DNA of 32,000 bases from Pyrobaculum aerophilum str. IM2 (GTDB taxonomy: Archaea > Thermoproteota > Thermoprotei > Thermoproteales > Thermoproteaceae). The stretch is taken from the NCBI RefSeq assembly GCF_000007225.1, contig NC_003364.1, forward strand, positions 1,410,001 through 1,442,000. Direction: 5' to 3'. Of this stretch, positions 6,252 through 28,538 are shown one piece after another. Every line of letters begins with the position of its first letter. Position 1 is the stretch's first letter. Both the position numbers and the translations under genes were made by a program. The notes under the pieces are model-generated. The model was not told the origin of the DNA, ran no database searches, and saw only the letters and a list, made by a program, of their open reading frames with translations.

Positions 6252-6281
6252 CCTTTTAAAACAGTGAGATAAAAAGAGGCG

Positions 6282-13881: not shown

Positions 13882-13956
13882 GGGCCCGTGGCTTAGCCCG
13901 GTTAGAGCGCCCGGCTGATAACCGGGAGGTCCCGGGTTCAAATCCCGGCGGGCCCA
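13882..13956 (+). tRNA. tRNA-Ile (anticodon GAT), no encoded CCA
   Basis: Manual cloverleaf. Acceptor GGGCCCG/CGGGCCC, D arm GCTT...GAGC. Anticodon arm CCCGG-CTGATAA-CCGGG, T arm CCGGG-TTCAAAT-CCCGG. Discriminator A. Confidence 0.9.
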
Positions 13957-14015
13957 CATCAAGTATTTTACCGCAGGTTATAGTCATATATGGCTATTCA
14001 ATATTACGGCAAAAA

Positions 14016-14044: not shown

Positions 14045-14139
14045 GGGCCGGTAGTCTAGCGGAAGGATGCCCGCCTTGCAAGGCGTTACATACCTAAGAG
14101 CGCGGGTGATCCCGGGTTCGAATCCCGGCCGGTCCACCA
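14045..14139 (+). tRNA. tRNA-Ala (anticodon TGC) with a 20-nt intron (14081-14100) at canonical position 37/38; CCA encoded
   Basis: Acceptor GGGCCGG/CCGGTCC gives the G3:U70 alanine identity pair. The anticodon stem CCCGC/GCGGG closes only if 14081-14100 is removed, leaving loop CTTGCAC. T arm CCGGG-TTCGAAT-CCCGG. Confidence 0.85.
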
Positions 14140-14331: not shown

Positions 14332-15018
14332 GTGGTTATTTTAAATGTGTTTAAGCCGAGAATAGACCCGTGTATATTTCTTCACAGAGACGCTGAGGAT
14401 TGGACTCGGTTGCTGGGAGAGGACTTTATTGACGAGTTAATTAGGCGTTTTAGCCATGTCGTGCGCGACGTTGATGAGCTAGTTGAGTACGTTTTTGAGT
14501 ACCCAGAGGCTTTCCACATTGGGTTGAGGGGGTTGCGGGTGGGAGGGCCTTATAAAGAGCAGTGGTTGCTCTACATCGAGAGCGGATATGTGGATCCTGG
14601 GTGGAGGGCGAAGTGGCCATACGTCCCGTCCGACGGGAAGCTAGATGTCAGAGTGCAAGTATCTCCCTGCTATCTCTTGACTGTGCTTAACGGCAGGGAG
14701 AGGGCATACATATGGCGGAATAGAGCGCCGGCAATTTTTAAGTGGATCAGCGCAGTTCCGAGGAGGAGGCCTCTCGACGTGTTTAGAGAGGCCTTTCCCG
14801 CATGGATTAGAGAGCTGGCCTGGACTCGCGGCTACTCTTGGGTTGCGTGGTCGCGGTGGAGAGACCGGCGTAATAAACACTTGGCGGAGTGGCTCTACTG
14901 GCTTGACAGCGGGCGAATGGCGCATATAGACATGGCCGTGGGGAGGTTTAGAGACGTGTACGAGACGGCAGCACGTACAATTAAAAGCGGCGCCGAGGTT
15001 TTGTACGAATTGTCGTAG
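14332..15018 (+). CDS. Hypothetical Trp/Arg-rich protein, first gene of the cluster (GTG start)
   Basis: Long ORF with no motif I recognise. Only 4 nt separate it from the next ORF. Confidence 0.5.
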   Translation: MVILNVFKPRIDPCIFLHRDAEDWTRLLGEDFIDELIRRFSHVVRDVDELVEYVFEYPEAFHIGLRGLRVGGPYKEQWLLYIESGYVDPGWRAKWPYVPSDGKLDVRVQVSPCYLLTVLNGRERAYIWRNRAPAIFKWISAVPRRRPLDVFREAFPAWIRELAWTRGYSWVAWSRWRDRRNKHLAEWLYWLDSGRMAHIDMAVGRFRDVYETAARTIKSGAEVLYELS

Positions 15019-15022
15019 CGCC

Positions 15023-15619
15023 ATGCAACAGACAATAAACAGAGTTAAGTCTTGGCTGGGGGAGGGCTGGGAATTCTACTGGGGCCTTCCGCCTAGCGGT
15101 GTGTATTTATTAAAAGAGGAATATATGGTAGATCCCAGGACTCTGGACGTTAAATGCGGAGGGGGCGACGGGCTTGTAATTGTTTACGTCGTAGCCTCCT
15201 TTGGCTCAGTGAATGTGGTATATGGAAAAGTAAAGCCCTTTATAACGAGGTGTCCCACGGCGACTTTTACGCGGAGTTTTAAGAGGGATATGATAAAAAG
15301 CGCCGTGAAGCTACTTATTGAATTCGCCACTACGGCAGACGGGGTTTCTATTTTTCAAATAAATCCAGAGGTAGTGCGCTTTGCCGGGCTCTGCGAGGAA
15401 TACCCGTTAGTATGCGATGAGCCTGCCGCCGTGGTTAAAAAACTGGAGGAGCGTATAGCCAGAGCGCCTGGGCCTAAAAGGGCAGTTGGGAGCACGGGGT
15501 GGGCTTTGGGGGAGCTCGTGAGAGTTTTAAACGACGTGGTAAGCAGAGATCCGACGTTTATTGAAGTAATTAAGAAAGTCGCGGAGGATCCTGAGAGGCT
15601 AAGGGCTTGCTATGTTTGA
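15023..15619 (+). CDS. Hypothetical protein
   Basis: ORF on the same strand, overlapping the next ORF by 8 nt. No recognised motif. Confidence 0.5.
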   Translation: MQQTINRVKSWLGEGWEFYWGLPPSGVYLLKEEYMVDPRTLDVKCGGGDGLVIVYVVASFGSVNVVYGKVKPFITRCPTATFTRSFKRDMIKSAVKLLIEFATTADGVSIFQINPEVVRFAGLCEEYPLVCDEPAAVVKKLEERIARAPGPKRAVGSTGWALGELVRVLNDVVSRDPTFIEVIKKVAEDPERLRACYV

Positions 15620-15911
15620 TAAAAACACTCTTAATTTTCTGAAAAATATTGAAGCTAGATGCCGTAATGAGGCCTTTTATAGAAATTATAAAGATATATG
15701 TATAGCCACAAAAATAGCCTTGTCAAACATTAAGGGGAGTGGCGTTAAGTTGAGAACTACGCTGGTGAGGCTGGCCGACCCGTCTGATAAAATTGTGGCC
15801 TCAAAGGTATTGAATTTTTTAAAGAGGGAGGTTGGGAGTATTACAGACAGCGAGAGGTTAAAATTGGCGGCGGCCCGCTACGTATATAAAAAAGTCTTGG
15901 CGTTAATATGA
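15612..15911 (+). CDS. Hypothetical small protein (visibly more A/T-rich than its neighbours)
   Basis: The ORF is bracketed by overlapping start/stop junctions on both sides (8 nt and 4 nt). No recognised motif. Confidence 0.45.
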   Translation: MFDKNTLNFLKNIEARCRNEAFYRNYKDICIATKIALSNIKGSGVKLRTTLVRLADPSDKIVASKVLNFLKREVGSITDSERLKLAAARYVYKKVLALI

Positions 15912-16612
15912 GGGGGGTGAAGACAGTGATAGTGACTTCTCTAGACGGCGGAGTTGGAAAGACAACAATAGCCTCTGTGCTTGCCGTGAAGAAGGGATTT
16001 ACGTTATTAGTGGATATGGACTGGGAGAAGGCCGATTTGTCACAATTATTCAGAGTTCCTAAAAAGCCAGGCTGGGTTGCCCCCTACTTAAAAGGCGGTA
16101 TGCCGTATGTCCACAGAGTATCGCCTCTGTTGTACGTAATGCCGGGGTACGAGGCATACGAGCTTTATCAGAGGTTTGGCGACGACGTAGTGGGGGATTT
16201 CGAAGAGGCCGTGTTGGAGTGGGCGGAGAACATGCCTAAATTCGTGGCGAAATTAAGAATACCGGTGGATACCGTAATTATTGACACAACCGCTGCGCTA
16301 AGAGTGGAGGTGCTTTCCAAGTTGCAACAGCTAGGCACGTATAATATTTTTATGGCCGACCGCCGCCTTATTTCCCGCATATCTGACATCAAGGCGGAGC
16401 AGTACCGCCGCTACATGGCCTACTCCTCCTTAGTGGTGGTAAACCAGTTAGAAAAGGACGAGATGAAAATCGCCAGGAAAATCACCCCCGTGGCGATTAA
16501 GCGCGTTGCCATTAGGGATTACTACGGCGAGAGTATTGCCAATTCAATACTGCGAGACCGCGAAAACCGCAAGTCCATTGACCACATTCTCACTCGCATT
16601 AAGTCTGTATGA
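15908..16612 (+). CDS. MinD/ParA-class (SIMIBI) P-loop ATPase with atypical Walker A (DGGVGKTT)
   Basis: VIVTSLDGGVGKTTIASVLA is a deviant Walker A without the signature Lys. LLVDMD is the Walker A' / switch I-like motif. VIIDTTA is the Walker B. An ATGA overlap links it to the following secretion ATPase gene. Confidence 0.7.
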   Translation: MRGVKTVIVTSLDGGVGKTTIASVLAVKKGFTLLVDMDWEKADLSQLFRVPKKPGWVAPYLKGGMPYVHRVSPLLYVMPGYEAYELYQRFGDDVVGDFEEAVLEWAENMPKFVAKLRIPVDTVIIDTTAALRVEVLSKLQQLGTYNIFMADRRLISRISDIKAEQYRRYMAYSSLVVVNQLEKDEMKIARKITPVAIKRVAIRDYYGESIANSILRDRENRKSIDHILTRIKSV

Positions 16613-18141
16613 TATACGCCCACGCCGACAACTCGCTGAGGAGCCGCTGTTGGCTCAAAAAAGAGGGCGTCATTGTGGACAGGGGGGTTCGCACAGACCT
16701 CTGCATTACTGAGGACCTCATGTACGTAGTCATTGACCCCGAGCTGCCGGACGACCTCCAGACGGCCTTAACGCTCATAATGTTCCGCGGGGCCGTGCCC
16801 CCGGACGAGAGGGAGTACCCCAAGCTGGTGAGGTCTGTGGCCGAGGGCCTCCGCGACCGCGGAATTTGGTCTTTGTACAAAGACTATCAGGACGTCGTCC
16901 ACTACCTCCTCGACAGGTGGTCCGGCGCGAGGGAGTACATGGGCTACGGGGCGCTGGAGGCCATGATGAGAGACCCCATGTTGACGGAAATAGTAATCCC
17001 CCAGCCGGCGGCCCCCGCCGCCAAGTACACCTACGTTCCCAAATCGCTCAAAGAGCAACTGGACTACATAAGATTCCAAATGGTGGAGCTAGGGCGATAC
17101 CGCCGTGTTATCGCCGTGAGGAATGAACTACGGCTCCCCACTAACATCGTCATCCCAGAGCCGTTGATGTACGTAGTAGTGAAACAGTTACTGCCCTCTC
17201 TCACTATGGACAAGCCCATGCTCACCAGAGAAGACCCGGTGAATAAGGCGAGAATAGCCGCTGATTTATTGGAGTATAACGTCAACATCAGGAAGGTGTC
17301 GGCCCATCCAAAACCCTCAAAATCTCTACTAAAGCCATACGTCACAAGGCCTAGGATAGAGGAGGCCGTCAAGGCGGCAGAGCCCTACAGCCCAGAGGGC
17401 CTTGAGGTGTTGGCCCTGGCCTCGCTCGTGTTGGAGACTAGGGGTAGTGTAGTGTTCTCAGGGGGCATGGGCTCTGGCAAGACGACGCAATTAAATCAAC
17501 TTCTCTACATGATGCCTCCTTGGTTTCAAGTAGTAATTATCGAGAGAGGCGCTAGAGAGATGTGGGCGCCTCTTGACGGCCAGCTACTGCACCTCTCAGT
17601 TCCCAGCGAGGACAAGCTGTGGGCAGCGCTTGATCAAGCACTTAGATACGGCACAATGCACACTGTTGTTGCGTTGGCGGAGGCCAGGACGCCGCAAGAG
17701 CTCCGCACTCTAGTGAATTACAAGCTCACTGGCCACGGGGCGCTTACCACTATGCACGCCGATACGGTTAAAGACGCCCTGTTGCGCATAACCGAGGCAG
17801 AGGCGCCTCCCGAGGGCCTAGATGGCACTCTCGTAATTCAGCTATCCGTCGTGGGCGGCATAAGGTACGTAAAGGAGGTAAAGGCCGTAATCGCTGAGGG
17901 CCGGGAGGTTAAAATAGCCGAGCCGTCGGCGGTAACCCCCAAGCTGGAGGCCTACGTGAGGGAGATGTACGGCGTAGACTTGAAAAAGGAGCTGGCGCTG
18001 AGAGTAGAGGCGTTGTTAAAGTCCAGCGAGGTGGAGGACCCCGCCGCGGCGAGGAGGGCTATTGTGGAAATGCTGTGGGGGGAGAGGCTGGACTTCAAAA
18101 CGGCGGTGGAGGAAGAGGCGAGGCACTTCGGCTATGTCTAG
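16609..18141 (+). CDS. Type II/IV secretion-system ATPase superfamily protein (VirB11/PilB/FlaI/TadA class), divergent
   Basis: N-terminal-domain motif GYGALEAMMRDPMLTEIVI. Walker A FSGGMGSGKTTQL. Asp-box position VVIIERGAREM. Walker B TVVALAEARTPQE. His box LTGHGALTTMHADTVKDALLRI. Confidence 0.8.
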   Translation: MIYAHADNSLRSRCWLKKEGVIVDRGVRTDLCITEDLMYVVIDPELPDDLQTALTLIMFRGAVPPDEREYPKLVRSVAEGLRDRGIWSLYKDYQDVVHYLLDRWSGAREYMGYGALEAMMRDPMLTEIVIPQPAAPAAKYTYVPKSLKEQLDYIRFQMVELGRYRRVIAVRNELRLPTNIVIPEPLMYVVVKQLLPSLTMDKPMLTREDPVNKARIAADLLEYNVNIRKVSAHPKPSKSLLKPYVTRPRIEEAVKAAEPYSPEGLEVLALASLVLETRGSVVFSGGMGSGKTTQLNQLLYMMPPWFQVVIIERGAREMWAPLDGQLLHLSVPSEDKLWAALDQALRYGTMHTVVALAEARTPQELRTLVNYKLTGHGALTTMHADTVKDALLRITEAEAPPEGLDGTLVIQLSVVGGIRYVKEVKAVIAEGREVKIAEPSAVTPKLEAYVREMYGVDLKKELALRVEALLKSSEVEDPAAARRAIVEMLWGERLDFKTAVEEEARHFGYV

Positions 18142-18144
18142 GCA

Positions 18145-18157
18145 AAAGTTTTTCCCC
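18145..18157 (+). promoter_or_regulatory. Cluster motif copy 1 (variant AAAGTTTTTCCCC), 32 nt before ATG 18177
   Basis: Read directly. It starts 4 nt after the ATPase stop codon. The T5 run is centred 26 nt upstream of the ATG. Confidence 0.6.
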
Positions 18158-18176
18158 TCCCCGAGGGAATAGGGCC

Positions 18177-18503
18177 ATGGTGTTGAAAAAGAAAATCCTC
18201 AGCGCGATATTAGAGGAGGCAGATAACGGCGGATTTCAACCAGTGCCCCAGTCGCCTCACTCAATTCAGGAATCTGTCGAGCCGGCAGCGGCGCCCCAGC
18301 CGGTACAGCCGGTAATTACGGCAGGGCCCCAGGCCTCCGGCTGGCAGTACCACTTAGCCGCCGCCATTACGCAAATGCCTGAGGAAATGGCGACTAAATT
18401 GCTCAGCTGTCTGCCTAAAGACTTCATTATTGAAATGTTGAAAAGCCGCTCTAACGACCCGTTGATGAAACTGGCGTTGCTCCTTCTCCAGAGAAATGTG
18501 TAG
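18177..18503 (+). CDS. Hypothetical small soluble protein (Pro/Gln-rich linker, helical C-terminus)
   Basis: I chose the internal ATG at 18177 of track ORF 18075-18503 because it lies 32 nt after the motif. The upstream extension overlaps the ATPase gene. Confidence 0.5.
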   Translation: MVLKKKILSAILEEADNGGFQPVPQSPHSIQESVEPAAAPQPVQPVITAGPQASGWQYHLAAAITQMPEEMATKLLSCLPKDFIIEMLKSRSNDPLMKLALLLLQRNV

Positions 18504-18834
18504 AGTAGAAAAGGCGGCTGTCAGAAAAGGCCTCACAGCCTCTACTGCCAGGTGGCTGTGCGAGCTTGCGAAAGAGCTGAACGTAAAGGAGAAGAAATTG
18601 CTCAAAGCCGTATTAAAACTCGCCAAACACGGCGTTTGGCTAGAGGCTGAGGACTGGCGCCTGGCATCGCGGCTGGTAGATCTCAACAAATACATGGACA
18701 TGGTCGTGGACTATATCATACGCAGAGTTGCCTCGGGCGCCTCCGTCGTGCAAGCAGTTAGAGAGCTCCCCAAGGCCGTGGAGAGGGCGGGGAAGCTCGC
18801 CCACGTGAAAGAAGTGCTGTCAAACTTAGTGTAG
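18496..18834 (+). CDS. Hypothetical helical protein
   Basis: ORF overlapping the upstream gene by 8 nt. The sequence is Lys/Leu/Ala-rich and helical-looking. No recognised motif. Confidence 0.5.
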   Translation: MCRVEKAAVRKGLTASTARWLCELAKELNVKEKKLLKAVLKLAKHGVWLEAEDWRLASRLVDLNKYMDMVVDYIIRRVASGASVVQAVRELPKAVERAGKLAHVKEVLSNLV

Positions 18835-18849
18835 CGACGTTCCAAACTC

Positions 18850-18862
18850 AAGGTTTTTCCCC
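18850..18862 (+). promoter_or_regulatory. Cluster motif copy 2 (AAGGTTTTTCCCC), 31 nt before ATG 18881
   Basis: Read directly. The extended 20-mer AAACTCAAGGTTTTTCCCCT (18844-18863) is identical to copy 5. Confidence 0.65.
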
Positions 18863-18880
18863 TATCCCCCTCCCCTCTCC

Positions 18881-20077
18881 ATGCGGGAGGATTTCTACAT
18901 AACGGCAGCTCCCATCTTCGCCACGTACCTCGGTGTAACCTCGGGCAATGAGGCGCTTAAATATACGGCGTTAAACACCGCCGAGTTAAACGAGGTTGAA
19001 TCTCGGCGCCTTTTCGTGGCGTCGTTAATGCCCACCCCCTCTGCCGTATTTCTAGAGGACAAGAGTGAGGTAGTTAGACAATACGGCTACGCCTTGGCGC
19101 AAGAGGAGGCAGGCGTGGACAGAGCCATAGTGGTACACTCCTTTCTAGAATCAACGAGGGCAGTGGCGGTGTCTAAAACCGAGGCCAAAACGAAGCTATA
19201 CGAATCTCTCACAAACGCAATGGGAGCCCTATTCCTACTCCCCCTCTTTTTATTGTTCCTATGGGCGGTGGGAGTGCTGGCAGTAGATCCCGCGCTCCTC
19301 ATCGCGTTAATTTTCGGCGTCACCGCGGCAGTGGGGGCCGTGGCCGTGGCCTCTACGCCGCGGGATCTCTCCCTCTGGAGGACGTATGAGTGGTCCCTCC
19401 CCGTCGGCCTCGCCGCTGGCGCCCTAGTAGGCCTGCTCGCCTCTCCTCCCGCGGCCTTTCTGGCCTTCGGCCTCACGGCGTTAGGCTGGCTGAAGGCGAG
19501 GGACAGGCTGTGGTGGTTTAGAATTAGGCAGGAGGTCCCGCCGATGCTCAGAGCCGCCGCGGCCATGCTGAAAGAGGGGGCTCCCCCCGATATTATAATC
19601 GCGAGGCTGTCGGGCAGGTTCAGAGTGGCGGCTAAAGTGGCCTACGGCTATTTCATCCCGTCGAGGTATTTCGCCCTGGCCAGGGCTATGTACCGGGCCA
19701 TTGCCGAGGCCGGCGGGGCCTCTGCGGTAAAGGCCGTGGAGTACATCCAGTCTGTCATCGACTTGGAAAACACCGCCGTCAGGAGGACAGTTAAGCTGGC
19801 CGCGGCGTATTTCGCCCTGTTTATAGCCGCGGTGGTGATACTGACTTACTCAGTGGCCACAGCCGTGAAGTCTCTATCGGCGCTGGAGTCTGGATACAAC
19901 CCCTTCTTCACGCCGCCTCCCTACGAGGAGGTGAAGTGGGTGGTGTCAACCGTCATGGCCCTAATAGCCGCCAGCTATATAGCGGTGTTTATATCGGCAG
20001 TGGGAATACACTACTCAGCCACGCTGGGCGGGGCAGTAGGCCTGGCCCTAGAGCGGGCAATACAGCTGTTGCTGTAA
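18881..20077 (+). CDS. Polytopic membrane protein, candidate PilC/TadC/FlaJ-type (T2SSF-like) platform
   Basis: Architecture is a soluble domain of about 110 aa, then a TM cluster, a second soluble helical domain (IRQEVPPMLRAAAAMLKEGAPPDIIIARLS...AIAEAGGASAVKAVEYIQSVI), then a second TM cluster. The second domain resembles the T2SSF repeat pattern. The gene sits between the ATPase and pilin genes. Confidence 0.55.
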   Translation: MREDFYITAAPIFATYLGVTSGNEALKYTALNTAELNEVESRRLFVASLMPTPSAVFLEDKSEVVRQYGYALAQEEAGVDRAIVVHSFLESTRAVAVSKTEAKTKLYESLTNAMGALFLLPLFLLFLWAVGVLAVDPALLIALIFGVTAAVGAVAVASTPRDLSLWRTYEWSLPVGLAAGALVGLLASPPAAFLAFGLTALGWLKARDRLWWFRIRQEVPPMLRAAAAMLKEGAPPDIIIARLSGRFRVAAKVAYGYFIPSRYFALARAMYRAIAEAGGASAVKAVEYIQSVIDLENTAVRRTVKLAAAYFALFIAAVVILTYSVATAVKSLSALESGYNPFFTPPPYEEVKWVVSTVMALIAASYIAVFISAVGIHYSATLGGAVGLALERAIQLLL

Positions 20078-20098
20078 TTCTCCTTTTTCAGGGAGGGC

Positions 20099-20111
20099 AA
20101 GGTTTTTCCCC
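20099..20111 (+). promoter_or_regulatory. Cluster motif copy 3 (AAGGTTTTTCCCC), 32 nt before ATG 20131
   Basis: Read directly. Confidence 0.65.
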
Positions 20112-20130
20112 TCTCCCAAACAAAGGGGAC

Positions 20131-20604
20131 ATGAACCAAAAAACGAGAAGAAAACTAAGAGGCCTGACTACAGTGGAGGCGTTGTTAATAGCCGCCGGCT
20201 TTATAATAGTGGGAGTGATCGGGGCGCTTACATTCCAGCAAATTGGAAAGTCCGCCTCTGAGGCTCTAAGGGCAAACGCCATAGTCACGGCGGATAGGGG
20301 CGGCCTTGACGTTACTGTGGAAGTGCTCAACGGGAAGCTCACCGCTATAGCTCTCAGGTATGGAGAAAGCGGCGGGCAATTAAACGACGCTCGGTTACAA
20401 GGCTGTTGGAGAGCCACCGCAAGTGGTATTACGCCTGGTACACCGTCTTCACGGAATCCCGTAGTGGCCGGGCAGTCCATAACTTGCAGGTTCACTGCCT
20501 CTCTGCAGTCTGGGAGGCAGTACGTCTACGTTATACTGGCAGGCGACGAGAGCGGCAAGACCGTCCAAATCGCCAAGGGAGTAGTCACAGTTGGCATATC
20601 GTAA
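20131..20604 (+). CDS. Prepilin-like protein with class III (type IV pilin) signal peptide
   Basis: The internal ATG of track ORF 19936-20604 gives MNQKTRRKLRG|LTTVEALLIAAGFIIVGVIGALTF. This is a basic leader, Arg-Gly at -2/-1, Glu at +5 and a roughly 20-aa hydrophobic helix. A Gly/Thr/Val-rich, beta-looking domain with 2 Cys follows. Confidence 0.65.
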   Translation: MNQKTRRKLRGLTTVEALLIAAGFIIVGVIGALTFQQIGKSASEALRANAIVTADRGGLDVTVEVLNGKLTAIALRYGESGGQLNDARLQGCWRATASGITPGTPSSRNPVVAGQSITCRFTASLQSGRQYVYVILAGDESGKTVQIAKGVVTVGIS

Positions 20605-20630
20605 ACGCCCAAAAACCCCCCACTTTTTTC

Positions 20631-20643
20631 AAGGTTTTTCCCC
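20631..20643 (+). promoter_or_regulatory. Cluster motif copy 4 (AAGGTTTTTCCCC[C]), 32 nt before ATG 20663
   Basis: Read directly. The spacer down to the ATG is almost pure pyrimidine. Confidence 0.65.
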
Positions 20644-20662
20644 CTCTCTTCTTCCCTTTCTT

Positions 20663-21643
20663 ATGAAGTTGCTAGGGATAATTGCGTTGGTAACACTGGT
20701 CGCGGCCGTATTTGGTCAAATCGTCAGCTGGGTTCCGCCGCACGCCCAGCTGGTGGGCGCGTATGTGTACAACGCCACTCACTTCGCGTATTACAAAGAT
20801 GGCGCGGCTGTATACATCGCGCAGGAGGGCCTTACCTTCAACGGGACTGATGCAGAGGCCCAGGCCGTTATGCAATTTCTCTACTCCCAGTGTAAATACG
20901 TAGCCGTCGAGGTGGAAAACATCACCGTTATTGACGGCGGAGAGCTCTGGCCCTCAGAGGTGTACTGCTCTCAAGACGGCTCCTCCTGGCTCTGGCTGAG
21001 GCTATTGCCCTTAAGATTCGCCGCGTATAAAGGCGATGTTGATTTTGTAAACGCCTCAATAACAGTATACACGCCAATTGGAGTATTTACTGGATACGTC
21101 CCCGCCGGCTGGTATCTAGACAGAGGCACAAACACTGTATTCCGCCTCCCGGGCTTCAACGCCTCTCTAATAACGGAGATACACAAGTTGCAGAGGGCAA
21201 TAACACAGCTGACAGCCCAGCTACAAGCCGTCAGCGCCAACAACAGCCAGCTGTCAGCGCTATTAACACAGCTAAGCGCAAAGGCGAATGAGCTGGAGTC
21301 CCAGCGCAAGGCGCTGGAAGAGGCCGTGAGGCAGAGGGAGAGCGTAATATCCGCCCTCAGCGCCCAGCTACAAGCGGCTAGGGCCGAGGCAGATGCCCTT
21401 AGAAAACAACTGGAGGAGGCCAGGAGAGAAAACGAGGCTCTGAGGGCGAGGCTGGCCGAAATAAACGCCACTTACACTGACATGATTCAACAACTACAGG
21501 CGCAACTAGATCAACTAAGCCAAATGCAACTACAAGCCCAGCCTGATGAGGGCGGCCCCAATCTACTCCCCCTACTGTTTATCGCGCTTATAGCAATAGT
21601 CGGCGCCCTAGTGTACATTAGGAAGAAGAGGGCGGAGGAGTAA
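20663..21643 (+). CDS. Bitopic coiled-coil protein: N-terminal hydrophobic helix, globular domain, about 120-aa Gln/Ala/Leu/Glu coiled coil, C-terminal TM anchor
   Basis: The internal ATG of track ORF 20591-21643 gives MKLLGIIALVTLVAAVFGQ. There is a heptad-like stretch (ITQLTAQLQAVSANNSQLSALLTQLSAKANELESQRKALEEAV...). The C-terminus is LLPLLFIALIAIVGALVYIRKKRAEE. Several N-x-S/T sequons are present. Confidence 0.6.
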   Translation: MKLLGIIALVTLVAAVFGQIVSWVPPHAQLVGAYVYNATHFAYYKDGAAVYIAQEGLTFNGTDAEAQAVMQFLYSQCKYVAVEVENITVIDGGELWPSEVYCSQDGSSWLWLRLLPLRFAAYKGDVDFVNASITVYTPIGVFTGYVPAGWYLDRGTNTVFRLPGFNASLITEIHKLQRAITQLTAQLQAVSANNSQLSALLTQLSAKANELESQRKALEEAVRQRESVISALSAQLQAARAEADALRKQLEEARRENEALRARLAEINATYTDMIQQLQAQLDQLSQMQLQAQPDEGGPNLLPLLFIALIAIVGALVYIRKKRAEE

Positions 21644-21661
21644 ACGGGGAAAGGGAAACTC

Positions 21662-21674
21662 AAGGTTTTTCCCC
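21662..21674 (+). promoter_or_regulatory. Cluster motif copy 5 (AAGGTTTTTCCCC), 31 nt before ATG 21693
   Basis: Read directly. The 20-mer at 21656-21675 is identical to copy 2. Confidence 0.65.
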
Positions 21675-21692
21675 TCCCCTTCCCCCTCTTTC

Positions 21693-21860
21693 ATGCTCCT
21701 GCTCCTAAGGAAATTGCTAGAGGGGCCTTTAACGCTAGAGGAATTTATGAGAGAGGTGTCTAAACTGGGGGAGAGGGATAGGGAGGTAGTCTGGTGGTAC
21801 GTGCGGGTTGTTGACGGCAGAGTAATGCTCAGGGGGTCGGGGCTATGGAGGATTTCATAG
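21693..21860 (+). CDS. 55-aa ORF not in the ORF track (MLLLLRKLLEGPLTLEEFMREVSKLGERDREVVWWYVRVVDGRVMLRGSGLWRIS)
   Basis: Own translation. It is the only ATG at the canonical 31-nt distance from motif copy 5. It overlaps the next ORF by 16 nt. Confidence 0.4.
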   Translation: MLLLLRKLLEGPLTLEEFMREVSKLGERDREVVWWYVRVVDGRVMLRGSGLWRIS

Positions 21861-22288
21861 CCGCCGCCGTATTTATTACAGCTTTGACGGCCTTGTTCAC
21901 ACTGACGGCTTTAGTGCTAAAGCCCTACATGCCCACCGCCTACGTAGAGGCGCCTGTGCAACCGGGCGAGAATACGCCAACTAGGACAATTTACGTCTAC
22001 GCGTACACGGCCGGCGGCGCCGAGAGGTACTACCTAGTGGAATACGTAGGCCCAGACGTAGAGGCGTTTAGGCGGTTTCTGGGAGTGCCGGGCGTGCTGG
22101 CGGCTAAGTTTGAGGTGTACCCGGGTGGCTACCGCTGTGAGTTATACAGAGAAAAGCCCGTTAAAATCGGCGATCCCTACACCGGCTTTTGGTGCCCGCC
22201 TCCCTTTGACGCCCGCGTTGACCCGCGTTGCGTGCCTATTGGCGTTATCTCTAGGGGGAGGTGGTTGTTAGTGCAGTACAAATGCTGA
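21845..22288 (+). CDS. Hypothetical protein with N-terminal hydrophobic helix (candidate minor pilin-like/anchored protein)
   Basis: MEDFIAAAVFITALTALFTLTALVLKP, followed by a Cys-containing soluble domain. Confidence 0.5.
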   Translation: MEDFIAAAVFITALTALFTLTALVLKPYMPTAYVEAPVQPGENTPTRTIYVYAYTAGGAERYYLVEYVGPDVEAFRRFLGVPGVLAAKFEVYPGGYRCELYREKPVKIGDPYTGFWCPPPFDARVDPRCVPIGVISRGRWLLVQYKC

Positions 22289-22292
22289 GGAT

Positions 22293-23390
22293 ATGTACGC
22301 AGTGAGAGATCTCGTGTTATTCGCCGCCTTAACCGCTATGGCCGTAGCCGTAATTGCGTCTTTATTCCCAGTGCGGGAGGGGCCCGCGGAAGTGCCGGTG
22401 TGCTCAGACTGCGCCTTTAAGCTAGTAGGCCCTTATGTCGTGAAACAATACGACAGCTACGCCGCAATACAGCTTGGCGGTAGGCAATTGGCGAGATACG
22501 GCTGGGCATATGTAAACGGCATGCCGCTATTGCCGGGGGAAAACGCCACGTGCCCAACGGCCATGTATCTGTGGGTTGCGGCTGGGAATCTTTACGTGTC
22601 TTGCGACGGCGCTCCCCCCAAGTTCGGGAGGTTTATCGCCGGGCGTCCCACGCTTGTAATAGACACTCTCGGCTTTTGTGACAGCGGGTGCGTCTACGTT
22701 ACGGCCGCAGACGGCTGGGGGGAGGTTGCGCTACCCGTAACTTTTGAATACGGCGCTTTGCATTATCTGAAGACAACCCCCTTCTGGTTCTGCATTAGCG
22801 GGTATCCCGCCCCTCCCTCAGACGGCGTGTATTACTTCGCGGCGCATTTCCCGGGCAACTCCTCTATACCTCCTCTGTGGGCAGAGGCCATGATTACGGT
22901 GAGCACAAAGCTGGTCATAGGCGGTCAGAACTACGTCATGTTGCAGAGTAGCGACTCCTCAGATCTCCGCCCCACGGCGTTGAAGGTCTACAACTTATCG
23001 GCCTACTGGGCTAAAGGGCAGTCCACAGCTAGGATATACGTCAACCGCCACAGATATTTCGACGTTGATAATAAGGGGGCCTTGCTGGACTTTCTACTGG
23101 CATGGGAGGACTGCCTCAGATGCGGCTCTTCAAGCTCTGCAGATCTCTACGTAGACGAGGTGTGGCGCCTTTGGCACGACGGCAGATGGCATTTACAGAG
23201 GCTAAATTCACAAGGCGGCTTTTGGCATGAGGTGCGCCTAAACGGCACATTGATATGGGTATACAACGCCCGCGGCCCGAAAATGAGTTACTTGGAGTGG
23301 TCTGGGACTCTCGCCAGAGTGCAGTTCGCCTCGCGGGACAGCGGTATGAACGCCGTCTTTGAGGTAAAGTTCGAGAGGGTCTGTAGATAG
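22293..23390 (+). CDS. Hypothetical Cys-rich exported protein with N-terminal hydrophobic helix
   Basis: MYAVRDLVLFAALTAMAVAVIASLF. Multiple Cys (CSDC, CPT...SCDG, FCDSGC, CLRC) and N-x-S/T sequons. Confidence 0.55.
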   Translation: MYAVRDLVLFAALTAMAVAVIASLFPVREGPAEVPVCSDCAFKLVGPYVVKQYDSYAAIQLGGRQLARYGWAYVNGMPLLPGENATCPTAMYLWVAAGNLYVSCDGAPPKFGRFIAGRPTLVIDTLGFCDSGCVYVTAADGWGEVALPVTFEYGALHYLKTTPFWFCISGYPAPPSDGVYYFAAHFPGNSSIPPLWAEAMITVSTKLVIGGQNYVMLQSSDSSDLRPTALKVYNLSAYWAKGQSTARIYVNRHRYFDVDNKGALLDFLLAWEDCLRCGSSSSADLYVDEVWRLWHDGRWHLQRLNSQGGFWHEVRLNGTLIWVYNARGPKMSYLEWSGTLARVQFASRDSGMNAVFEVKFERVCR

Positions 23391-23391
23391 T

Positions 23392-24150
23392 ATGTGGTCT
23401 CTTGCCTACGGCCTAATAGCCCTCGCCGTTGTTGCTTTCGCCGTCATGTACGCAGCCCTCCACTTCTCAAAGCCTATTTCTATAAATCTGGCGGAGGATC
23501 TCTATAACGCCAAGAGAAAGGCCCTTGACGTGTTTTACACAGACTCCCTGGCTGTTTTTAGGCGCAACTCCGGCGTTGCGTATTACGTGAGGGTGAACGT
23601 CACGGCATACGACCCGGCTACAAAGAAATACGTGGAATTCCCATTGGGAATGCCAGTGGCCTATAGGCTACAGGGAGAGGCCTCCTACTACATATACTCC
23701 TTGGCGTTAAACGCCACGTGCCTCCTGTCTGCGGCTAAGGCGTATGGAAAGCCCGCTGTGTTGTACGAAGTGGAGGTGTACTATCCACTGGACCCAGCCC
23801 CGTGGCTTGAGGTATACGCCGTAGTGCCTAAATACGACAACTGGACATCGTACCTATACCCAGCCGCTGGGAGGAGCCTGATCCTCACCACAGACCTAGT
23901 GGACTGGAATTTTGGATTTCTCTTCGACGCGGTGAAGGCCGAGTGGGCCTTTATAAACAACGGGACCCGCGCAGTGCTCTACGCCCTTGTGCCTAAAGCC
24001 GCTGTGGGCGTATTAGTGGTGGACTACCCCGCCAAGGCCTTTATTACATGCGGGAGGCTATTCGCACAGCAAGAGGGGGAGGAGGGCAGAGAGGGGGAGA
24101 GAGGCGGCGGGGACAACGGCCCTACTCAGTACATACAGCCGGAGAAATGA
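23392..24150 (+). CDS. Hypothetical protein with N-terminal hydrophobic helix and acidic Gly/Glu-rich C-terminus
   Basis: MWSLAYGLIALAVVAFAVMYAAL. The tail is QQEGEEGREGERGGGDNG. Its stop codon overlaps motif copy 6. Confidence 0.55.
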   Translation: MWSLAYGLIALAVVAFAVMYAALHFSKPISINLAEDLYNAKRKALDVFYTDSLAVFRRNSGVAYYVRVNVTAYDPATKKYVEFPLGMPVAYRLQGEASYYIYSLALNATCLLSAAKAYGKPAVLYEVEVYYPLDPAPWLEVYAVVPKYDNWTSYLYPAAGRSLILTTDLVDWNFGFLFDAVKAEWAFINNGTRAVLYALVPKAAVGVLVVDYPAKAFITCGRLFAQQEGEEGREGERGGGDNGPTQYIQPEK

Positions 24151-24162
24151 AGGTTTTTCCCC
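24150..24162 (+). promoter_or_regulatory. Cluster motif copy 6 (AAGGTTTTTCCCC), 32 nt before ATG 24182
   Basis: Read directly. The first A is the last base of the upstream TGA stop. Confidence 0.65.
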
Positions 24163-24181
24163 TTGCCTCTAGGCGAGAGCC

Positions 24182-27100
24182 ATGAGGCTGATATTGTTTG
24201 CCCTGATACTAACAATGTTAGTAACTGCCGGCGTTAAGCTGGAATCCGTCCAGATAGAAAAACTTGGCAACTACACCTATTCAAACGTAGTTGAAGCCGC
24301 CGTGTCCTTCTCCATGGGCACCGCGGCGCCGCTGGGAGTTGGGAAAGGCGTCGGGGGCGCGAGCTGGAAGCCCTCAGACGCTCCCACGACGGAGGTCTGG
24401 GGCGTTAGGGGGGTTAACACAACTGTGGCCGCTTGGTGGAGTTATGCACAAGGCGCAAAGTGGGAGGGGGACTTGCGCTTTTCAGTCACTCTAGAATACT
24501 ACGATTCCAACGGTGTATGGAGCATCACTAAGTACTTCGTAAACAAGACCTACTGTGAGTACGACGACGCCACAGGGGCCAAGCTATACTGCTGGAATAA
24601 TTATTACGTCTACCACGTGGTGGAGGGGGAGCCCAGCCGCGTCTCCACGACGGTGACTTTCACAGTGCCTAGCGATAGGGCCAGGTACTCGGCGAGCCAG
24701 AGCCTTAAGGTGAATAAGCCGCCCCAGCCCTTTACCCGTTGGGTTTACATAAAGGGTGTTATCGCGCGAGAGAGCGGCTACTGCTCTTCCATAGACAGCT
24801 GGGGAGACTGCCAGCAGTATACGCCAAAGGAAGACAAAGTGGTGAGAGGCTCCTCACCCGGCGTCTGGCGGGCTTTGGAAATAGACGGCTATAAGCCGGG
24901 AGATGTGGTGAGAATTGGCGGCGCCAACGCCACTATTCCAGACCCTTGGCTCTACACAGACTGGCCGTTGTTAGACCTGGCCCCCAGTCTGGGCGTTAGC
25001 ACTGACATAGATGGGGTATTGCGCCCGTTGAGAGGAGGGCTTGATATTCCCTTCGACCGGCGCGTTTACATCACTGGCGACGTTTCGCCTACAGACTGGG
25101 GCACCGTGGAAATTAGGCCTCCCCGGGACGCTCCTCTGTACATCTCCAGAGTGGTGTTTATAGGCGACGTGTCTAAATGCCGGTTCCCAGACTGTATAAT
25201 AATACACACAGTGGGCAATTCCACTTGGGTTGGGGATAGGTGGGTTTGGAGAGACACCATGGCCTCCCTCGCGTTTAAAACTCCTTTTACGCTGAGGCCT
25301 TATTTAATAACGCGAGTGGGCGGCGCCGCCAATCCCTACCAAGTCATAGGGGATCCCCTTGTCACTTTAATCAGCAGAGAAGCGTATGTATACGTCCCCT
25401 ACGGCAGCGTTGGGCAACTGTGGGTTGAGGTGAAGTGGATGCTAGACTTGGCGGGGAGGAGGGTCTGGGTAGGCGATAGGGGGACTGCCCTTAGGGCTGT
25501 GGACGACAGAGGCCGGCTGTTAGACTACGAAACGGCGGGGGCCAGGGGGAAGCTGGCGTATTACAAGCCGGGGTATAACGCCCCTATCGCGGGGTTTTCC
25601 TTTGGCATAGACGCGGGCTTTGGGCGGTTAACAACCGCCTTCTACTCCCCGCCGGATCCGTGCCGCCAGTGGCCTACACAGATTTTCCACTGCGTTTACT
25701 CACAACACGTCTTCACGAAGGTAAACGGCACGTGGGTCGGCTACGCCAGGGTGGGCCCCCGGGGAGGGCCGCAGTGGCCTATAACTAGGCTGAGGCTGGT
25801 GGACTGGCTAATTGGCTCTGATCCCTACGTGTCAGTAAGGGGGTATTTCTTAGACTTCATGAGCGCCGTTGTGGGAGACCCCCACCTTCTCTACCACCAC
25901 TACTACAGGTTGGAGTGCTGGGCCTTCAACCCGCAGACGGGGGATTTCGACATACCTGACATGTGCCCCGTGCCGGGGCCTCACCAAGTCTCGTTGCTGG
26001 GCCGGGTGTACGGAATTTCGCAATACCTCAACACAACAAGGGGCTGGAGCCGGCTTTACCACCAGACGGCCATGCCGAGAGGCCTCACTTTTTATAATTA
26101 CGCCTTTGGGAAATACGGCGGCGGTACGGAGCTACCGGCCGGCTGGACAGACGCCCTTCCCCTCGGAGTGTCTAGTATGATTCCCAACGGGCCGTCGCCA
26201 TGGTTTGTCTTCCTGGCCCCGGCCACTGCCTGCGACGGCACTATATGTACGTCTACAGACGTGAGAGTGTGGGGGCCTGTGCCCGGTCCTCTTGCCGATT
26301 TAGCCCTCCCCGGCGCTGGATACGCCTTTGTCCTCATATACATGGGAAATGTCACTAAGGCCTCAGTGAGGGTGTACGTGGAGAAGGGGCTATTGGTAAA
26401 CGCCTCTATGGGCGTTAGGGAGGCCAATTGGGATCTCCTCGTGGAAATACCAGAGAGGGAGTGGAGGCCCCTCGACGTAGTATACCTGGGGTACGGGTGG
26501 TACAGGCTGGCCGGCGCCCTCGGCCCCTGTCAGTCGTTGCGCGTCGGCCGCGTTGGCTACTACGCCGCGCCGGTAGATTGGGTCGGGCCTGTCCAGCTCA
26601 AAATAACAGACGGAAAGGGCTCCCACCACTTCGCCTTCCTCGTGGCTCCGCCTGAGCTCACGGCGTTGAAAATTGGGGGTAGGACAGAGGCGCCTGCTAG
26701 GGCAAACGGGTGGCAACTTAATTTATCCGCCTATCTCTATGTCAACGGCGTGCCTTACTTCCACGGCTTCACGCCGTTCGGCGAGGGGGGAAGGCAGTAT
26801 GAGAGGAAGTGCGTAGCGGCCAGCCTCCCGGCTCCCCGCACCTCTCTCCTTGGAGAGGCGGACGCCGCCTCTCAGCTGGCCGCAAGCGGAGACTTCTGGG
26901 GCCTTGTGGAGATGTACGCCAGAGCGAGGCTGGAGGGCGCCGTTGTTGAGCCCAAGTTCGAGCTAGTGGACCCCGATGGGGGTCTGGTGAATATCACGGC
27001 GGAAGGCCCCGTCAAGGGCTTTGCCTTTTACTTACAGCGCGGCGGCGTATGGGTGAAGGTGACTGAGGTGAACGGCACGTGGGCTTTGGTGGACGTCTCC

Positions 27101-27280
27101 AGAGTATTCCCCTGGGATCCCGTAGCGGTAGTCCCCATTGTGGAGTTCGAGGCCTATGTCCGAAACGGGGGCGTTGTCACAGTGTGGCGGCCGAGGCCTT
27201 CGCTGTTATTCAAGGCCTGGGCCGACGGCCTGGGCTATCCCGACGGCCAGAGCGAGTTGCGCATAGTGGCCTATGGATAG
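24182..27280 (+). CDS. Giant (1032 aa) exported protein, N-terminal hydrophobic helix, Trp/Tyr/Gly/Val-rich, many N-x-S/T sequons
   Basis: MRLILFALILTMLVTAGVKLES. It is one uninterrupted ORF with no further obvious TM segment. No family recognised. Confidence 0.65.
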   Translation: MRLILFALILTMLVTAGVKLESVQIEKLGNYTYSNVVEAAVSFSMGTAAPLGVGKGVGGASWKPSDAPTTEVWGVRGVNTTVAAWWSYAQGAKWEGDLRFSVTLEYYDSNGVWSITKYFVNKTYCEYDDATGAKLYCWNNYYVYHVVEGEPSRVSTTVTFTVPSDRARYSASQSLKVNKPPQPFTRWVYIKGVIARESGYCSSIDSWGDCQQYTPKEDKVVRGSSPGVWRALEIDGYKPGDVVRIGGANATIPDPWLYTDWPLLDLAPSLGVSTDIDGVLRPLRGGLDIPFDRRVYITGDVSPTDWGTVEIRPPRDAPLYISRVVFIGDVSKCRFPDCIIIHTVGNSTWVGDRWVWRDTMASLAFKTPFTLRPYLITRVGGAANPYQVIGDPLVTLISREAYVYVPYGSVGQLWVEVKWMLDLAGRRVWVGDRGTALRAVDDRGRLLDYETAGARGKLAYYKPGYNAPIAGFSFGIDAGFGRLTTAFYSPPDPCRQWPTQIFHCVYSQHVFTKVNGTWVGYARVGPRGGPQWPITRLRLVDWLIGSDPYVSVRGYFLDFMSAVVGDPHLLYHHYYRLECWAFNPQTGDFDIPDMCPVPGPHQVSLLGRVYGISQYLNTTRGWSRLYHQTAMPRGLTFYNYAFGKYGGGTELPAGWTDALPLGVSSMIPNGPSPWFVFLAPATACDGTICTSTDVRVWGPVPGPLADLALPGAGYAFVLIYMGNVTKASVRVYVEKGLLVNASMGVREANWDLLVEIPEREWRPLDVVYLGYGWYRLAGALGPCQSLRVGRVGYYAAPVDWVGPVQLKITDGKGSHHFAFLVAPPELTALKIGGRTEAPARANGWQLNLSAYLYVNGVPYFHGFTPFGEGGRQYERKCVAASLPAPRTSLLGEADAASQLAASGDFWGLVEMYARARLEGAVVEPKFELVDPDGGLVNITAEGPVKGFAFYLQRGGVWVKVTEVNGTWALVDVSRVFPWDPVAVVPIVEFEAYVRNGGVVTVWRPRPSLLFKAWADGLGYPDGQSELRIVAYG

Positions 27281-27785
27281 TCTCAAGGCCGTTTTGACGA
27301 CAGCGGCCGCCGTGGCGTTGACTCTAGTGGTGGCAGTGGCTGTGACCAACGCGTTGCAAAGCGCAAATCCAGTTGTTAAATCAATAGCATTAGCCGTAGC
27401 TGGGGAGTCCAAGGCAAAGGCGGAGACGCCACTGTCCGTAGTAAAATACGGAGTGTACTACGTCTACGAGGGCGGCGGATGGGCTTTGTCCGCCGCTCCC
27501 TCAGCCGTTTCTACGCCGCAGCTCTACGCCGTGGGCTTCGGCAACTGCCCTGCCGACATTTCGGGGCTATACGGAAGGGCATATGCGCCGGGGAGCAATG
27601 TAGTACACGTAACGGGCTGTTCCATCGTAGTGCCCTCCATCGCCAAGGAGGACGGGGCTGTGGCAATTACCCACTACCTCCCCATGTGCGTTTCAGGAAC
27701 TGATTTTAGAACCGAAACTGTTGGACAGTACTTCACTTACAAGGGAGTGCGGTTTAGAGTGAGGCTGGTGATAATCCGCTGTTAA
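27273..27785 (+). CDS. Second prepilin-like candidate
   Basis: MDSLKA|VLTTAAAVALTLVVAVAVTNAL has Lys-Ala at -2/-1 and an LTT-containing hydrophobic helix, reminiscent of the 20131 protein. It overlaps the giant gene by 8 nt. Confidence 0.5.
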   Translation: MDSLKAVLTTAAAVALTLVVAVAVTNALQSANPVVKSIALAVAGESKAKAETPLSVVKYGVYYVYEGGGWALSAAPSAVSTPQLYAVGFGNCPADISGLYGRAYAPGSNVVHVTGCSIVVPSIAKEDGAVAITHYLPMCVSGTDFRTETVGQYFTYKGVRFRVRLVIIRC

Positions 27786-27791
27786 AAACCC

Positions 27792-27830
27792 GCTTTTTTC
27801 CTCTCTTTCCATTCTTCTTCTCTAATCCCC
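27792..27830 (+). promoter_or_regulatory. Degenerate motif-like element (GCTTTTTTCCTCTCTTTCC...) with no ATG at the canonical distance; possible oligo-T terminator or decayed promoter
   Basis: A T6 run at 27795-27800 is followed by a C/T-rich tract resembling the spacer of copy 4. No start codon lies 25-35 nt downstream. Confidence 0.3.
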
Positions 27831-27950
27831 CTATTCTCTTCACTTCTACGTCACCTTAAACCCCGTATTTCCAGGCGTGTCCCAATAAGACGTCGTGCTT
27901 CTGGGCACGTTTAGACAGAACATAGCCTTCAGCGCCGTTTCAAATGCCGT

Positions 27951-27963
27951 AAGGTTTTTCCCC
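27951..27963 (+). promoter_or_regulatory. Cluster motif copy 7 (AAGGTTTTTCCCC), 31 nt before ATG 27982
   Basis: Read directly. Confidence 0.65.
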
Positions 27964-27981
27964 AGCCACTGCCACACGGCC

Positions 27982-28248
27982 ATGAGACTGGAGCTGGCCT
28001 TGATACCGGTTATATTCGGAATGGCAGTAGCCGTCTTAATAGCGGTGAAGCCGCTGGAGGTCAACAAGCCGGACTTGTCCGCGTTGTTCCTCTACTGGCC
28101 TGAGGCTTATAAATACGCGGAGAGGGGCGACGCGATGTTTATACGCGGCGTTGTGCCGTTCGTGACGTGCGCCTCTAGCGGTATCGTCGAGGCGCCTCCC
28201 GGCCTGGCCTACAAGGCGCTCGGCCTCACCTGCCGGTTTAGGCCATGA
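27982..28248 (+). CDS. Small protein with N-terminal hydrophobic helix
   Basis: The internal ATG of track ORF 27895-28248 gives MRLELALIPVIFGMAVAVLIAVKP. I chose this start because of the motif spacing. Confidence 0.5.
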   Translation: MRLELALIPVIFGMAVAVLIAVKPLEVNKPDLSALFLYWPEAYKYAERGDAMFIRGVVPFVTCASSGIVEAPPGLAYKALGLTCRFRP

Positions 28249-28538
28249 TTGAGGAGTACATAGAGCTAGCCGCCGTCACGGCGCTGGCGGTAATTGCCAT
28301 TACAGCCTTCGCCTACATATTCGCCTACATCACAACGCCAGCAGCCTGCCAAGCCGTTAGGCTCGCGGCGGAAAACCCAGGCAGCGAGCTGGTGGCGTAC
28401 GGAAGGCTGAGAGTAATTACAAACGACACGCATGTATCTCTATGCGGCATTACTATTGAAAAGGACAAAATCTTAATATATAGAACTGAAGGATATCTAT
28501 TCATTGTAAGCGATAATTATAAAATATATATTAAATAA
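28245..28538 (+). CDS. Small protein with N-terminal hydrophobic helix; 3' third is strikingly A/T-rich
   Basis: MIEEYIELAAVTALAVIAITAFAYIFAYITT. It overlaps the previous gene by 4 nt. Composition changes from about 28440 onward. Confidence 0.45.
   Translation: MIEEYIELAAVTALAVIAITAFAYIFAYITTPAACQAVRLAAENPGSELVAYGRLRVITNDTHVSLCGITIEKDKILIYRTEGYLFIVSDNYKIYIK

Follow-up and report, generated by a model that had tools for sequence, protein, structure and literature searches.

Pyrobaculum aerophilum IM2 carries, in a 32,000-nt stretch of its chromosome (NC_003364.1, positions 1,410,001 to 1,442,000; hereafter the window, with positions counted from its first nucleotide), an unbroken series of 18 open reading frames (ORFs) on the plus strand at 14332-28538, here called g01 to g18. 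Six of the encoded proteins are identical to database entries of strain IM2, among them AAL64166, PAE2398, PAE2403, PAE2405 and PAE2412. We conclude, with a probability of roughly 0.78, that this cluster is the P. aerophilum copy of subclade 4G, a chromosomal archaeal type IV pilus-like system from the superfamily of type IV filaments (TFF) that is specific to the Pyrobaculum-Thermoproteus lineage. The cluster has been known as a computational prediction since 2016. Hence, the reading of these genes as a type IV filament-like machine, reached in an initial annotation from the DNA letters alone, is right but not new. It is supported above all by two of the core parts of a TFF system: a secretion ATPase that matches the Pfam family T2SSE, and a pilin with a conserved class III signal peptide.

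Subclade 4G was described by Makarova et al. (2016, Front Microbiol 7:667, PMC4858521) as a highly complex system of Pyrobaculum and Thermoproteus spanning arCOG05605-05619. The set includes a diverged ATPase (arCOG05609), a diverged TadC (arCOG05611), major pilins of the PilA family (arCOG05612) and a FleN/MinD protein (arCOG05608), together with two large proteins, one C-terminally anchored and one secreted, many cysteine-rich minor pilins and two small helical cytoplasmic proteins (PMC4858521). Supplementary file 10 adds arCOG05605-05607 as Pyrobaculum-specific cytoplasmic proteins of the 4G operon (PMC4858521). The P. aerophilum cluster has this full gene set, including the secreted giant (arCOG05616) and the leading arCOG05605-05607 genes, and its taxonomic range, Pyrobaculum and Thermoproteus, is that of 4G; we therefore regard it as a member. 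Protein lengths of 234, 112, 398, 157, 326, 147 and 1032 aa compare with 234, 112, 398, 148, 318, 159 and 979 aa for the P. calidifontis 4G entries in that supplement. Since the identifiers PAE2398-PAE2412 were not found in the available part of it, the cluster is linked to 4G through orthologs. A literature search for PAE2398-PAE2412 found no papers. None of the components has had its structure solved, and we came across no experimental work on the system. A 2026 preprint redescribes 4G and gives its function in archaea as unknown (bioRxiv 10.64898/2026.04.22.720090).

The secretion ATPase of the clade 4G type, g05 (AAL64166, arCOG05609), is encoded at 16609-18141. Its match to T2SSE (PF00437), expected from the initial annotation, reaches 39.2 bits, above the cutoff of 24.9 (E = 4.5e-10), and covers residues 269-399 only. 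The nearest PDB sequences are A. fulgidus GspE2 (2oap), FlaI (4ii7) and CpaF, with E values of 3e-7 to 3e-6. Walker A (GGMGSGKTT), Walker B (VVALAEAR) and the His box (TGHGALTTMHAD) are all intact; these motifs, and the pilin N-terminus quoted with them in the initial annotation, are present in the translations. By its sequence, g05 is classed as a PilB/FlaI/GspE-type ATPase. Identity to orthologs from Pyrobaculum genomes and metagenomes is 73-85%, with named species at 80-85%, and falls to ~54% in Thermoproteus; outside these genera similarity collapses, the next match reaching only E = 1e-5. The P. arsenaticum ortholog (P0062, 427 aa) is 84% identical and collinear to residue 351, then runs out of frame, and beyond that residue lacks Walker B and the His box. 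The gene is apparently frameshifted or a pseudogene, unless the sequencing is in error.

The predicted major pilin is g09 (PAE2405, arCOG05612; 157 aa, 20131-20604). Its N-terminus reads MNQKTRRKLRG/LTTVEALLIAAGFIIVGVIGALTF, where the slash marks the predicted cleavage site and the mature protein would start with LTTVEALL. The class III motif, [KR]G/[LMQ]xx[VI]E, is kept in eight orthologs, which bears out the earlier prepilin call. Ortholog leaders are basic and vary in length from 3 to 10 aa; the Gly at -1 is invariant, and position +1 is Leu, Met or Gln. Glu stands at +5 in seven Pyrobaculum orthologs, and Asp one position later in Thermoproteus. We thus assign g09 a class III signal peptide, with cleavage predicted. 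The cleavage site is followed by a 24-residue hydrophobic segment and a conserved polar stretch, with ~71% nonpolar residues over 41 positions. The family has two invariant Cys and a variable central region. A single g09 ortholog matches Pfam Pilin_N (E = 0.0038), and the best PDB profile matches of g09, which are not significant, are the N-termini of crenarchaeal flagellins.

Six further small proteins (g12, g13, g14, g16, g17 and g18) start with a hydrophobic helix, as do the Sec-type proteins g10 and g15 described below, in keeping with the earlier remark that many products of the cluster begin this way. The first of the six, g12 (147 aa, 21845-22288, 4 Cys), is probably arCOG05614, and its P. 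oguniense orthologs bear a class III-like leader, RLRG/VEDV. Ortholog comparison shows that g13 (365 aa, 22293-23390, 10 Cys, N-terminal helix) is conserved only over its first ~115 aa; most orthologs have 108-128 aa, and a long cysteine-rich C-terminal extension brings the protein to 365 aa in P. aerophilum and to 265 and 334 aa in P. oguniense. A bitopic or pilin-like protein of 252 aa with four N-glycosylation sequons is encoded by g14 (23392-24150); ortholog identity is 29-38% and the conserved N-terminus is MW[SA][LVTM][AT]YG[LV]IA. The orthologs of g16 (170 aa, 27273-27785, 4 Cys, pilin-like) begin with MLTLR[AY]LL, which resembles a mature pilin N-terminus without a leader. Orthologs of g17 (88 aa, 27982-28248; pilin-like or bitopic) begin with MRLELALIP, and g18 (97 aa, 28245-28538) is a pilin-like protein with two conserved Cys whose gene overlaps g17 by 4 nt. 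Pfam found no prepilin peptidase (PibD/FlaK/EppA, peptidase A24) among the 18 proteins of the cluster or the products of 12 ORFs that flank it in the window, and the earlier statement that the cluster holds no such gene stands.

The 398-aa polytopic protein encoded by g08 (PAE2403, 18881-20077) is arCOG05611, annotated as a 'diverged TadC'. When 1.84 billion representative proteins were searched with its profile by full HMMER, only 10 came back, all from its own family. Given an alignment in which the most distant relatives were included, AlphaFold2 produced a confident model, with a predicted local distance difference test score (pLDDT) of 88 and a predicted template modelling score (pTM) of 0.81; the single-sequence model, with a pLDDT of 50, was not used. 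The model has two repeats, each consisting of a soluble helical bundle, a helix of 50-56 residues and two transmembrane helices, and thereby agrees with the two-repeat build proposed from the sequence, in which no internal repeat was detected at the sequence level. g08 occupies the platform position and, in the model, has a TadC/FlaJ-like domain layout. We compared the family by hhalign with profiles of FlaJ/TadC proteins, all with PF00482, from a Thermoplasmatota locus and relatives. The E value was 0.014 with 22 sequences in the profile; with 92 sequences, scores were 38-43.4 (E = 9e-5 to 4e-4, probability 36-60%) and the match was collinear over 270-304 columns, against a score of 17.6 for the reversed-sequence control. 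We therefore lean, tentatively, towards membership of g08 in the T2SSF family. This is supported by a 4-nt overlap between the platform and ATPase genes in a divergent relative, and by the arCOG annotation.

Directly upstream of the ATPase gene, with a 4-nt overlap, lies g04 (PAE2398, arCOG05608; 234 aa, 15908-16612), a MinD/FleN/ParA-like P-loop protein that is translationally coupled to g05. MinD and ParA proteins (SIMIBI class) have a deviant Walker A motif, KGGxGK[ST], with a signature lysine. In g04 the P-loop reads GGVGKTT and is accompanied by a DxD switch-like motif and a Walker B-like motif of the form hhhhD; nine orthologs (loci L001-L008) all share the sequence S[LV]DGGVGKTT. Profile matches are below cutoffs in both Pfam (CbiA, 21.7 against 25.4) and NCBIfam (minD_arch, 23 against 201.75). 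The two P. oguniense orthologs, of 237 and 234 aa (loci L005 and L002), are the arCOG05608 entries in the available part of the 2016 supplement.

Two large proteins are predicted to be exposed at the cell surface. The first, g10 (arCOG05613; 326 aa, 20663-21643), has a Sec-type signal, a beta-rich domain, a coiled coil of ~120 aa and a C-terminal transmembrane anchor, with transmembrane segments at both ends and seven sequons. Its profile matches are to coiled-coil families only, with FlaC_arch below threshold (E = 0.012), and it is missing from one related locus (L008). The second, g15 (PAE2412, arCOG05616; 24182-27280), is a secreted giant of 1032 aa annotated as 'Ig-rich adhesin-like', with 14 Cys, 12 sequons, a Sec-type N-terminus and no other transmembrane segment. 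No Pfam or PDB match was found for it. The 2026 preprint describes this type of protein as rich in immunoglobulin (Ig) folds and adhesin-like (10.64898/2026.04.22.720090). Divergence of the surface proteins is steep: orthologs of the giant are 38-43% identical, and those of several pilin-like proteins 29-40%. Because sequons and even Cys counts are confined to the predicted surface proteins, we predict an extracellular location for them.

The remaining genes encode small, mostly cytoplasmic proteins. Three lead the cluster: g01 (228 aa, 14332-15018), g02 (198 aa, 15023-15619) and g03 (99 aa, basic and probably helical, 15612-15911), which by position resemble arCOG05605, arCOG05606 and arCOG05607, respectively. 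Orthologs of g01 are 57-63% identical and lie immediately upstream in five Pyrobaculum loci. Two more small cytoplasmic proteins follow the ATPase: g06 (18177-18503), poorly conserved and with orthologs of 72-89 aa, and g07 (arCOG05610; 112 aa, 18496-18834), basic and helical, with orthologs 64-73% identical and the length of the 112-aa P. calidifontis arCOG05610 entry in the available part of the supplement. None of these five had a match in Pfam, PHROG or PDB, and g01-g03 had none in NCBIfam either. Finally, g11 (55 aa, 21693-21860) gave no tblastn match in any related locus compared and was seen in P. aerophilum only; it is doubtful as a protein gene and may instead be an ORF that serves for coupling or as a leader. 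The junctions reported earlier were confirmed on the sequence together with the 18 ORFs: overlaps are 4 nt at 15908 (g03/g04), 16609 and 28245, 8 nt at 15612 (g02/g03), 18496 and 27273, and 16 nt at 21845 (g11/g12). Three genes probably start downstream of the longest ORF, g06 at 18177 rather than 18075, g10 at 20663 rather than 20591 and g17 at 27982 rather than 27895, because the position of a conserved upstream box and the N-termini of orthologs both point to these ATG codons.

This box recurs in the cluster. With up to two mismatches allowed, the 14-mer AAGGTTTTTCCCCT has nine matches in the window, where 0.36 would be expected. Seven of the nine copies are in the cluster on the plus strand and end 17-18 nt before the ATG of g06, g08, g09, g10, g11, g15 and g17, and their distance from the stop codon before them ranges between 0 and 166 nt. 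The copies lie at 18145-18158 (AAAGTTTTTCCCCT, 18 nt before the g06 ATG), 18850-18863 (AAGGTTTTTCCCCT, before the platform gene), 20099-20112 (before the pilin gene), 20631-20644 (18 nt before the g10 ATG), 21662-21675 (before g11/g12), 24150-24163 (before the giant gene, its first base also closing the stop codon of g14) and 27951-27964 (17 nt before the g17 ATG). The two minus-strand matches, at 7155 and 7882, were taken as chance, being inside genes, with mismatches and without the ATG spacing. A relaxed pattern combined with the ATG spacing gave 16 matches in the cluster and none in ~82 kb of flanks. In other Pyrobaculum species the core of the box, TTTTTCC (hence T5CC box), reappears at most of the corresponding sites that were compared, which lie before the platform, pilin and g10 genes, the giant gene and g17, and before the platform gene it is kept in five Pyrobaculum loci (TTTTTCA in L007). 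It was not found at the orthologous positions in Thermoproteus.

Position and conservation suggest that the T5CC box is a shared, non-canonical TATA-like promoter. The other genes and the tRNAs of the window have AAA-TTTATAAA-type boxes, and a canonical TTTTAA-type box lies upstream of g01. P. aerophilum has leaderless mRNAs (PMC2151090). The arrangement in which g01-g05 follow the canonical box and seven downstream units each begin 17-18 nt after a T5CC box fits leaderless mRNAs under common control. Hence, the cluster is probably not one operon; rather, it would comprise about eight co-regulated units. The box may also double as an oligo-T terminator.

The initial annotation called the cluster accessory. 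In the sense of an island this does not hold: the order of g01-g18 is kept across Pyrobaculum, and the cluster is present, partly rearranged, in Thermoproteus, so that the search for the block in related genomes proposed earlier has a positive answer. Comparison of the loci indicates a chromosomal, vertically inherited, lineage-specific locus. The cluster does adjoin two tRNA genes, lies on one strand and has GC and GC3 somewhat above those of its flanks, as an integrated mobile element or provirus at tRNA-Ala might. However, there is no integrase, no repeat of the tRNA 3ʹ end and no PHROG match among the cluster proteins; clusters orthologous to this one are found across Pyrobaculum and also in Thermoproteus; and P. 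neutrophilum shares the right neighbour, Nre, has no tRNA adjacent to the cluster and differs on the left by a simple inversion. With no att repeat or integrase, no PHROG match and conserved synteny, a provirus or island at tRNA-Ala was ruled out; we consider this explanation almost certainly wrong. The cluster stands beside tRNAs here and not in P. neutrophilum because window positions 5390-10060 (TauE to Cob_adeno_trans) are inverted relative to positions 2928-7503 of the P. neutrophilum locus (L007), and an ABC (ATP-binding cassette) peptide-transporter operon and the tRNAs lie between the inverted block and the cluster in P. aerophilum.

P. oguniense TE7 (CP003316.1) has two copies of the cluster, at 617043-638566 (L002) and 485409-506935 (L005), the second of which lacks g01-g03. 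More divergent relatives also exist. On a Logan contig (SRR32459163, L011), an ATPase gene whose product is 39% identical is directly followed by the platform gene mentioned above and preceded by genes for 857-aa and 172-aa proteins; a second such relative is L010. Given these two loci, the family may extend slightly beyond Pyrobaculum and Thermoproteus.

How does the cluster compare with characterized type IV filament systems? The initial annotation found its layout unlike that of the archaellum, which is correct, and did not place it further; the layout is that of the catalogued subclade 4G. The cluster shares with the archaellum the ATPase superfamily (FlaI, 4ii7) and a flagellin-like pilin N-terminus, but no cluster protein has an above-threshold Pfam match to PF01917, FlaH/KaiC, FlaF/FlaG, FlaX or FlaCDE. 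Likeness to the Tad/Flp pilus lies in the MinD-like gene directly upstream of the ATPase gene and in the presence of CpaF among the best PDB matches of g05. However, Tad pili have both TadB and TadC where the cluster has a single two-repeat platform gene; there is no secretin; no ParA/MinD model matches g04 more than weakly; and the 157-aa pilin, with a beta-rich domain, is not of the Flp type. Flp-type pilins are far shorter than 157 aa. Two filaments described from the same genus belong to the same machine superfamily but come from other loci and other pilin families: the type IV pilus (T4P) of P. arsenaticum (PMC7347861), assigned to subsystem 4E (10.64898/2026.04.22.720090), and the flagellar-like AT4P (archaeal type IV pilus) of P. 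calidifontis (PDB 8FK7, PMC10334743), which shows no supercoiling. The locus of the latter includes KaiC, where the cluster has the MinD-like g04 instead. Identity with the 4E T4P, the flagellar-like AT4P, Abp or Ted was ruled out, as PDB gave no sequence match for the cluster proteins to these.

Several observations weigh against the assignment. No cluster protein matches the solved Pyrobaculum filaments (P. arsenaticum T4P, P. calidifontis flagellar-like pilus, Abp and Ted), and no filament made of cluster proteins has been seen. The match to T2SSF (PF00482) that had been expected for g08 did not appear in any of 19 family members, even at E ≤ 10, and a Foldseek search of the g08 model against PDB returned nothing; moreover, two of 40 block shuffles reached the real hhalign score, so that homology to FlaJ/TadC is not statistically secure. 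In P. aerophilum only one of the seven pilin-like proteins, g09, has a class III leader, and an all-against-all hhalign comparison found no paralogy among the pilin-like families beyond their N-terminal helices. The MinD/ParA-like call for g04 stands insofar as g04 is a P-loop protein with sub-threshold matches to CbiA, ParA and MinD models, but in nine of nine orthologs Asp stands where the deviant Walker A motif has its signature lysine; MinD-like ATP-sandwich dimerization is therefore not to be assumed. The apparent frameshift in the P. arsenaticum ATPase implies that the system can be lost. The promoter function of the T5CC box is read from its position only.

What would a subclade 4G machine do? 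We infer processing, assembly, localization and adhesion from established TFF systems, while our data show which parts are present and to which class they belong. PAE2405 would be cut after Gly11 by a prepilin peptidase of the PibD type, encoded outside the cluster, and a hexameric ATPase docked on the platform would lift the processed pilin from the membrane to build a helical filament, which the leaderless pilin-like proteins might prime or cap, or join as minor subunits. The coiled-coil protein g10, as a collar, and the giant g15, as an adhesin, could act at or beyond the S-layer, and the MinD-like g04 may place or gate the machine, possibly at a pole. By analogy, the output is most likely an adhesion or cell-contact pilus.

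A rather unlikely alternative is that the machine builds no long pilus, forming instead a short pseudopilus or bindosome-like assembly that exports the giant and the coiled-coil stalk, or displays them through the S-layer, in the manner of a T2SS or a surface-display device. Type II secretion systems (T2SS) have one major pseudopilin and several minor ones, and one major pilin with six pilin-like proteins resembles this ratio. A separate copy of the box precedes the gene of the giant, which is a hallmark feature of 4G, electron microscopy studies of Pyrobaculum appendages include no 4G filament, and the Sulfolobus bindosome is a precedent for a TFF machine that is not a pilus (10.64898/2026.04.22.720090). 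However, the giant and g10 have ordinary Sec-type signals, and therefore need no TFF machine to cross the membrane, and the variable central region of g09 is as in exposed major pilins.

It is quite unlikely that the cluster encodes a motility organelle that replaces the archaellum in Pyrobaculum, as a filament that rotates or moves in some other way, with polar placement by the MinD-like protein and some of the N-terminally anchored proteins as stator analogues. The initial annotation had raised this idea as a speculation, and its premise is sound: motility and flagella-like filaments have been reported in P. aerophilum and P. calidifontis, which have no fla operon (PMC10334743). The polar stretch that follows 24 hydrophobic residues in g09, and the non-significant flagellin matches of this protein, are in line with it, and MinD-type proteins position archaella in haloarchaea (10.64898/2026.04.22.720090). 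Nonetheless, FlaH/KaiC, FlaF/FlaG, FlaX and Arch_flagellin gave no match in the cluster, which is also present in P. neutrophilum, and the flagellar-like filament of P. calidifontis, without supercoiling, comes from a different locus that bears KaiC. That KaiC-linked pilus is a better motility candidate than the cluster. We consider very unlikely a joint proposal in which the seven T5CC boxes form a regulon read by a lineage-specific basal-factor paralogue or activator that would turn on all of 4G as insulated leaderless units, and the resulting filament, with its flagellin-like pilin N-terminus and MinD-like positioning protein, underlies the reported motility. A TFIIB found only in Pyrobaculum and Thermoproteus lies inside a pilin-less 4D locus (Makarova et al. 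2016, PMC4858521), and would be one candidate reader of the box, at the same long odds as the proposal it belongs to. An adhesion or cell-contact pilus of subclade 4G remains our preferred interpretation.

The cluster is flanked by minus-strand housekeeping genes, ABC permeases on the left (the nearest at 12791-13840) and Nre on the right (28593-29729), both identified by Pfam. An Rfam scan of the window found four tRNAs and no other RNA family. Two of the tRNA genes lie upstream of the cluster, tRNA-Ile at 13882-13957 and an intron-containing tRNA at 14045-14139, whose isotype ARAGORN did not name. Read directly from the sequence, the latter shows UGC as its anticodon (loop cTTGCAa) together with the pair G3:U70 and is therefore tRNA-Ala, as first annotated, with the first ORF of the cluster beginning ~195 nt beyond it. 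Its intron of ~18 nt lies directly 3ʹ of the anticodon, and the 3ʹ CCA is encoded in the gene. Farther to the left, a major facilitator superfamily (MFS) transporter is split into two overlapping minus-strand ORFs (7333-8064 and 7995-8528), and a run of five G (~8068-8072) lies close upstream of where they overlap; the syntenic position in P. neutrophilum holds one undivided gene of 397 aa, and a frameshift in 7333-8528 is probable. On the plus strand, the 216-aa product of 8606-9256 bears a signal or anchor at its N-terminus and has no Pfam family, and in P. neutrophilum an ORF of similar size (219 aa) adjoins TauE.

Taken as a whole, this analysis mainly confirms a computational prediction published in 2016 on the basis of arCOG comparative genomics. 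The T5CC box, the Lys-to-Asp change in g04, the 55-aa ORF and the g13 extension were not found described in the 4G papers. Subclade 4G is the most complex TFF variant in Thermoproteales and remains a target for experiment. The corrected gene starts, the platform model, the Walker A motif of g04 and the shared promoter-like box provide concrete handles for that experimental work.

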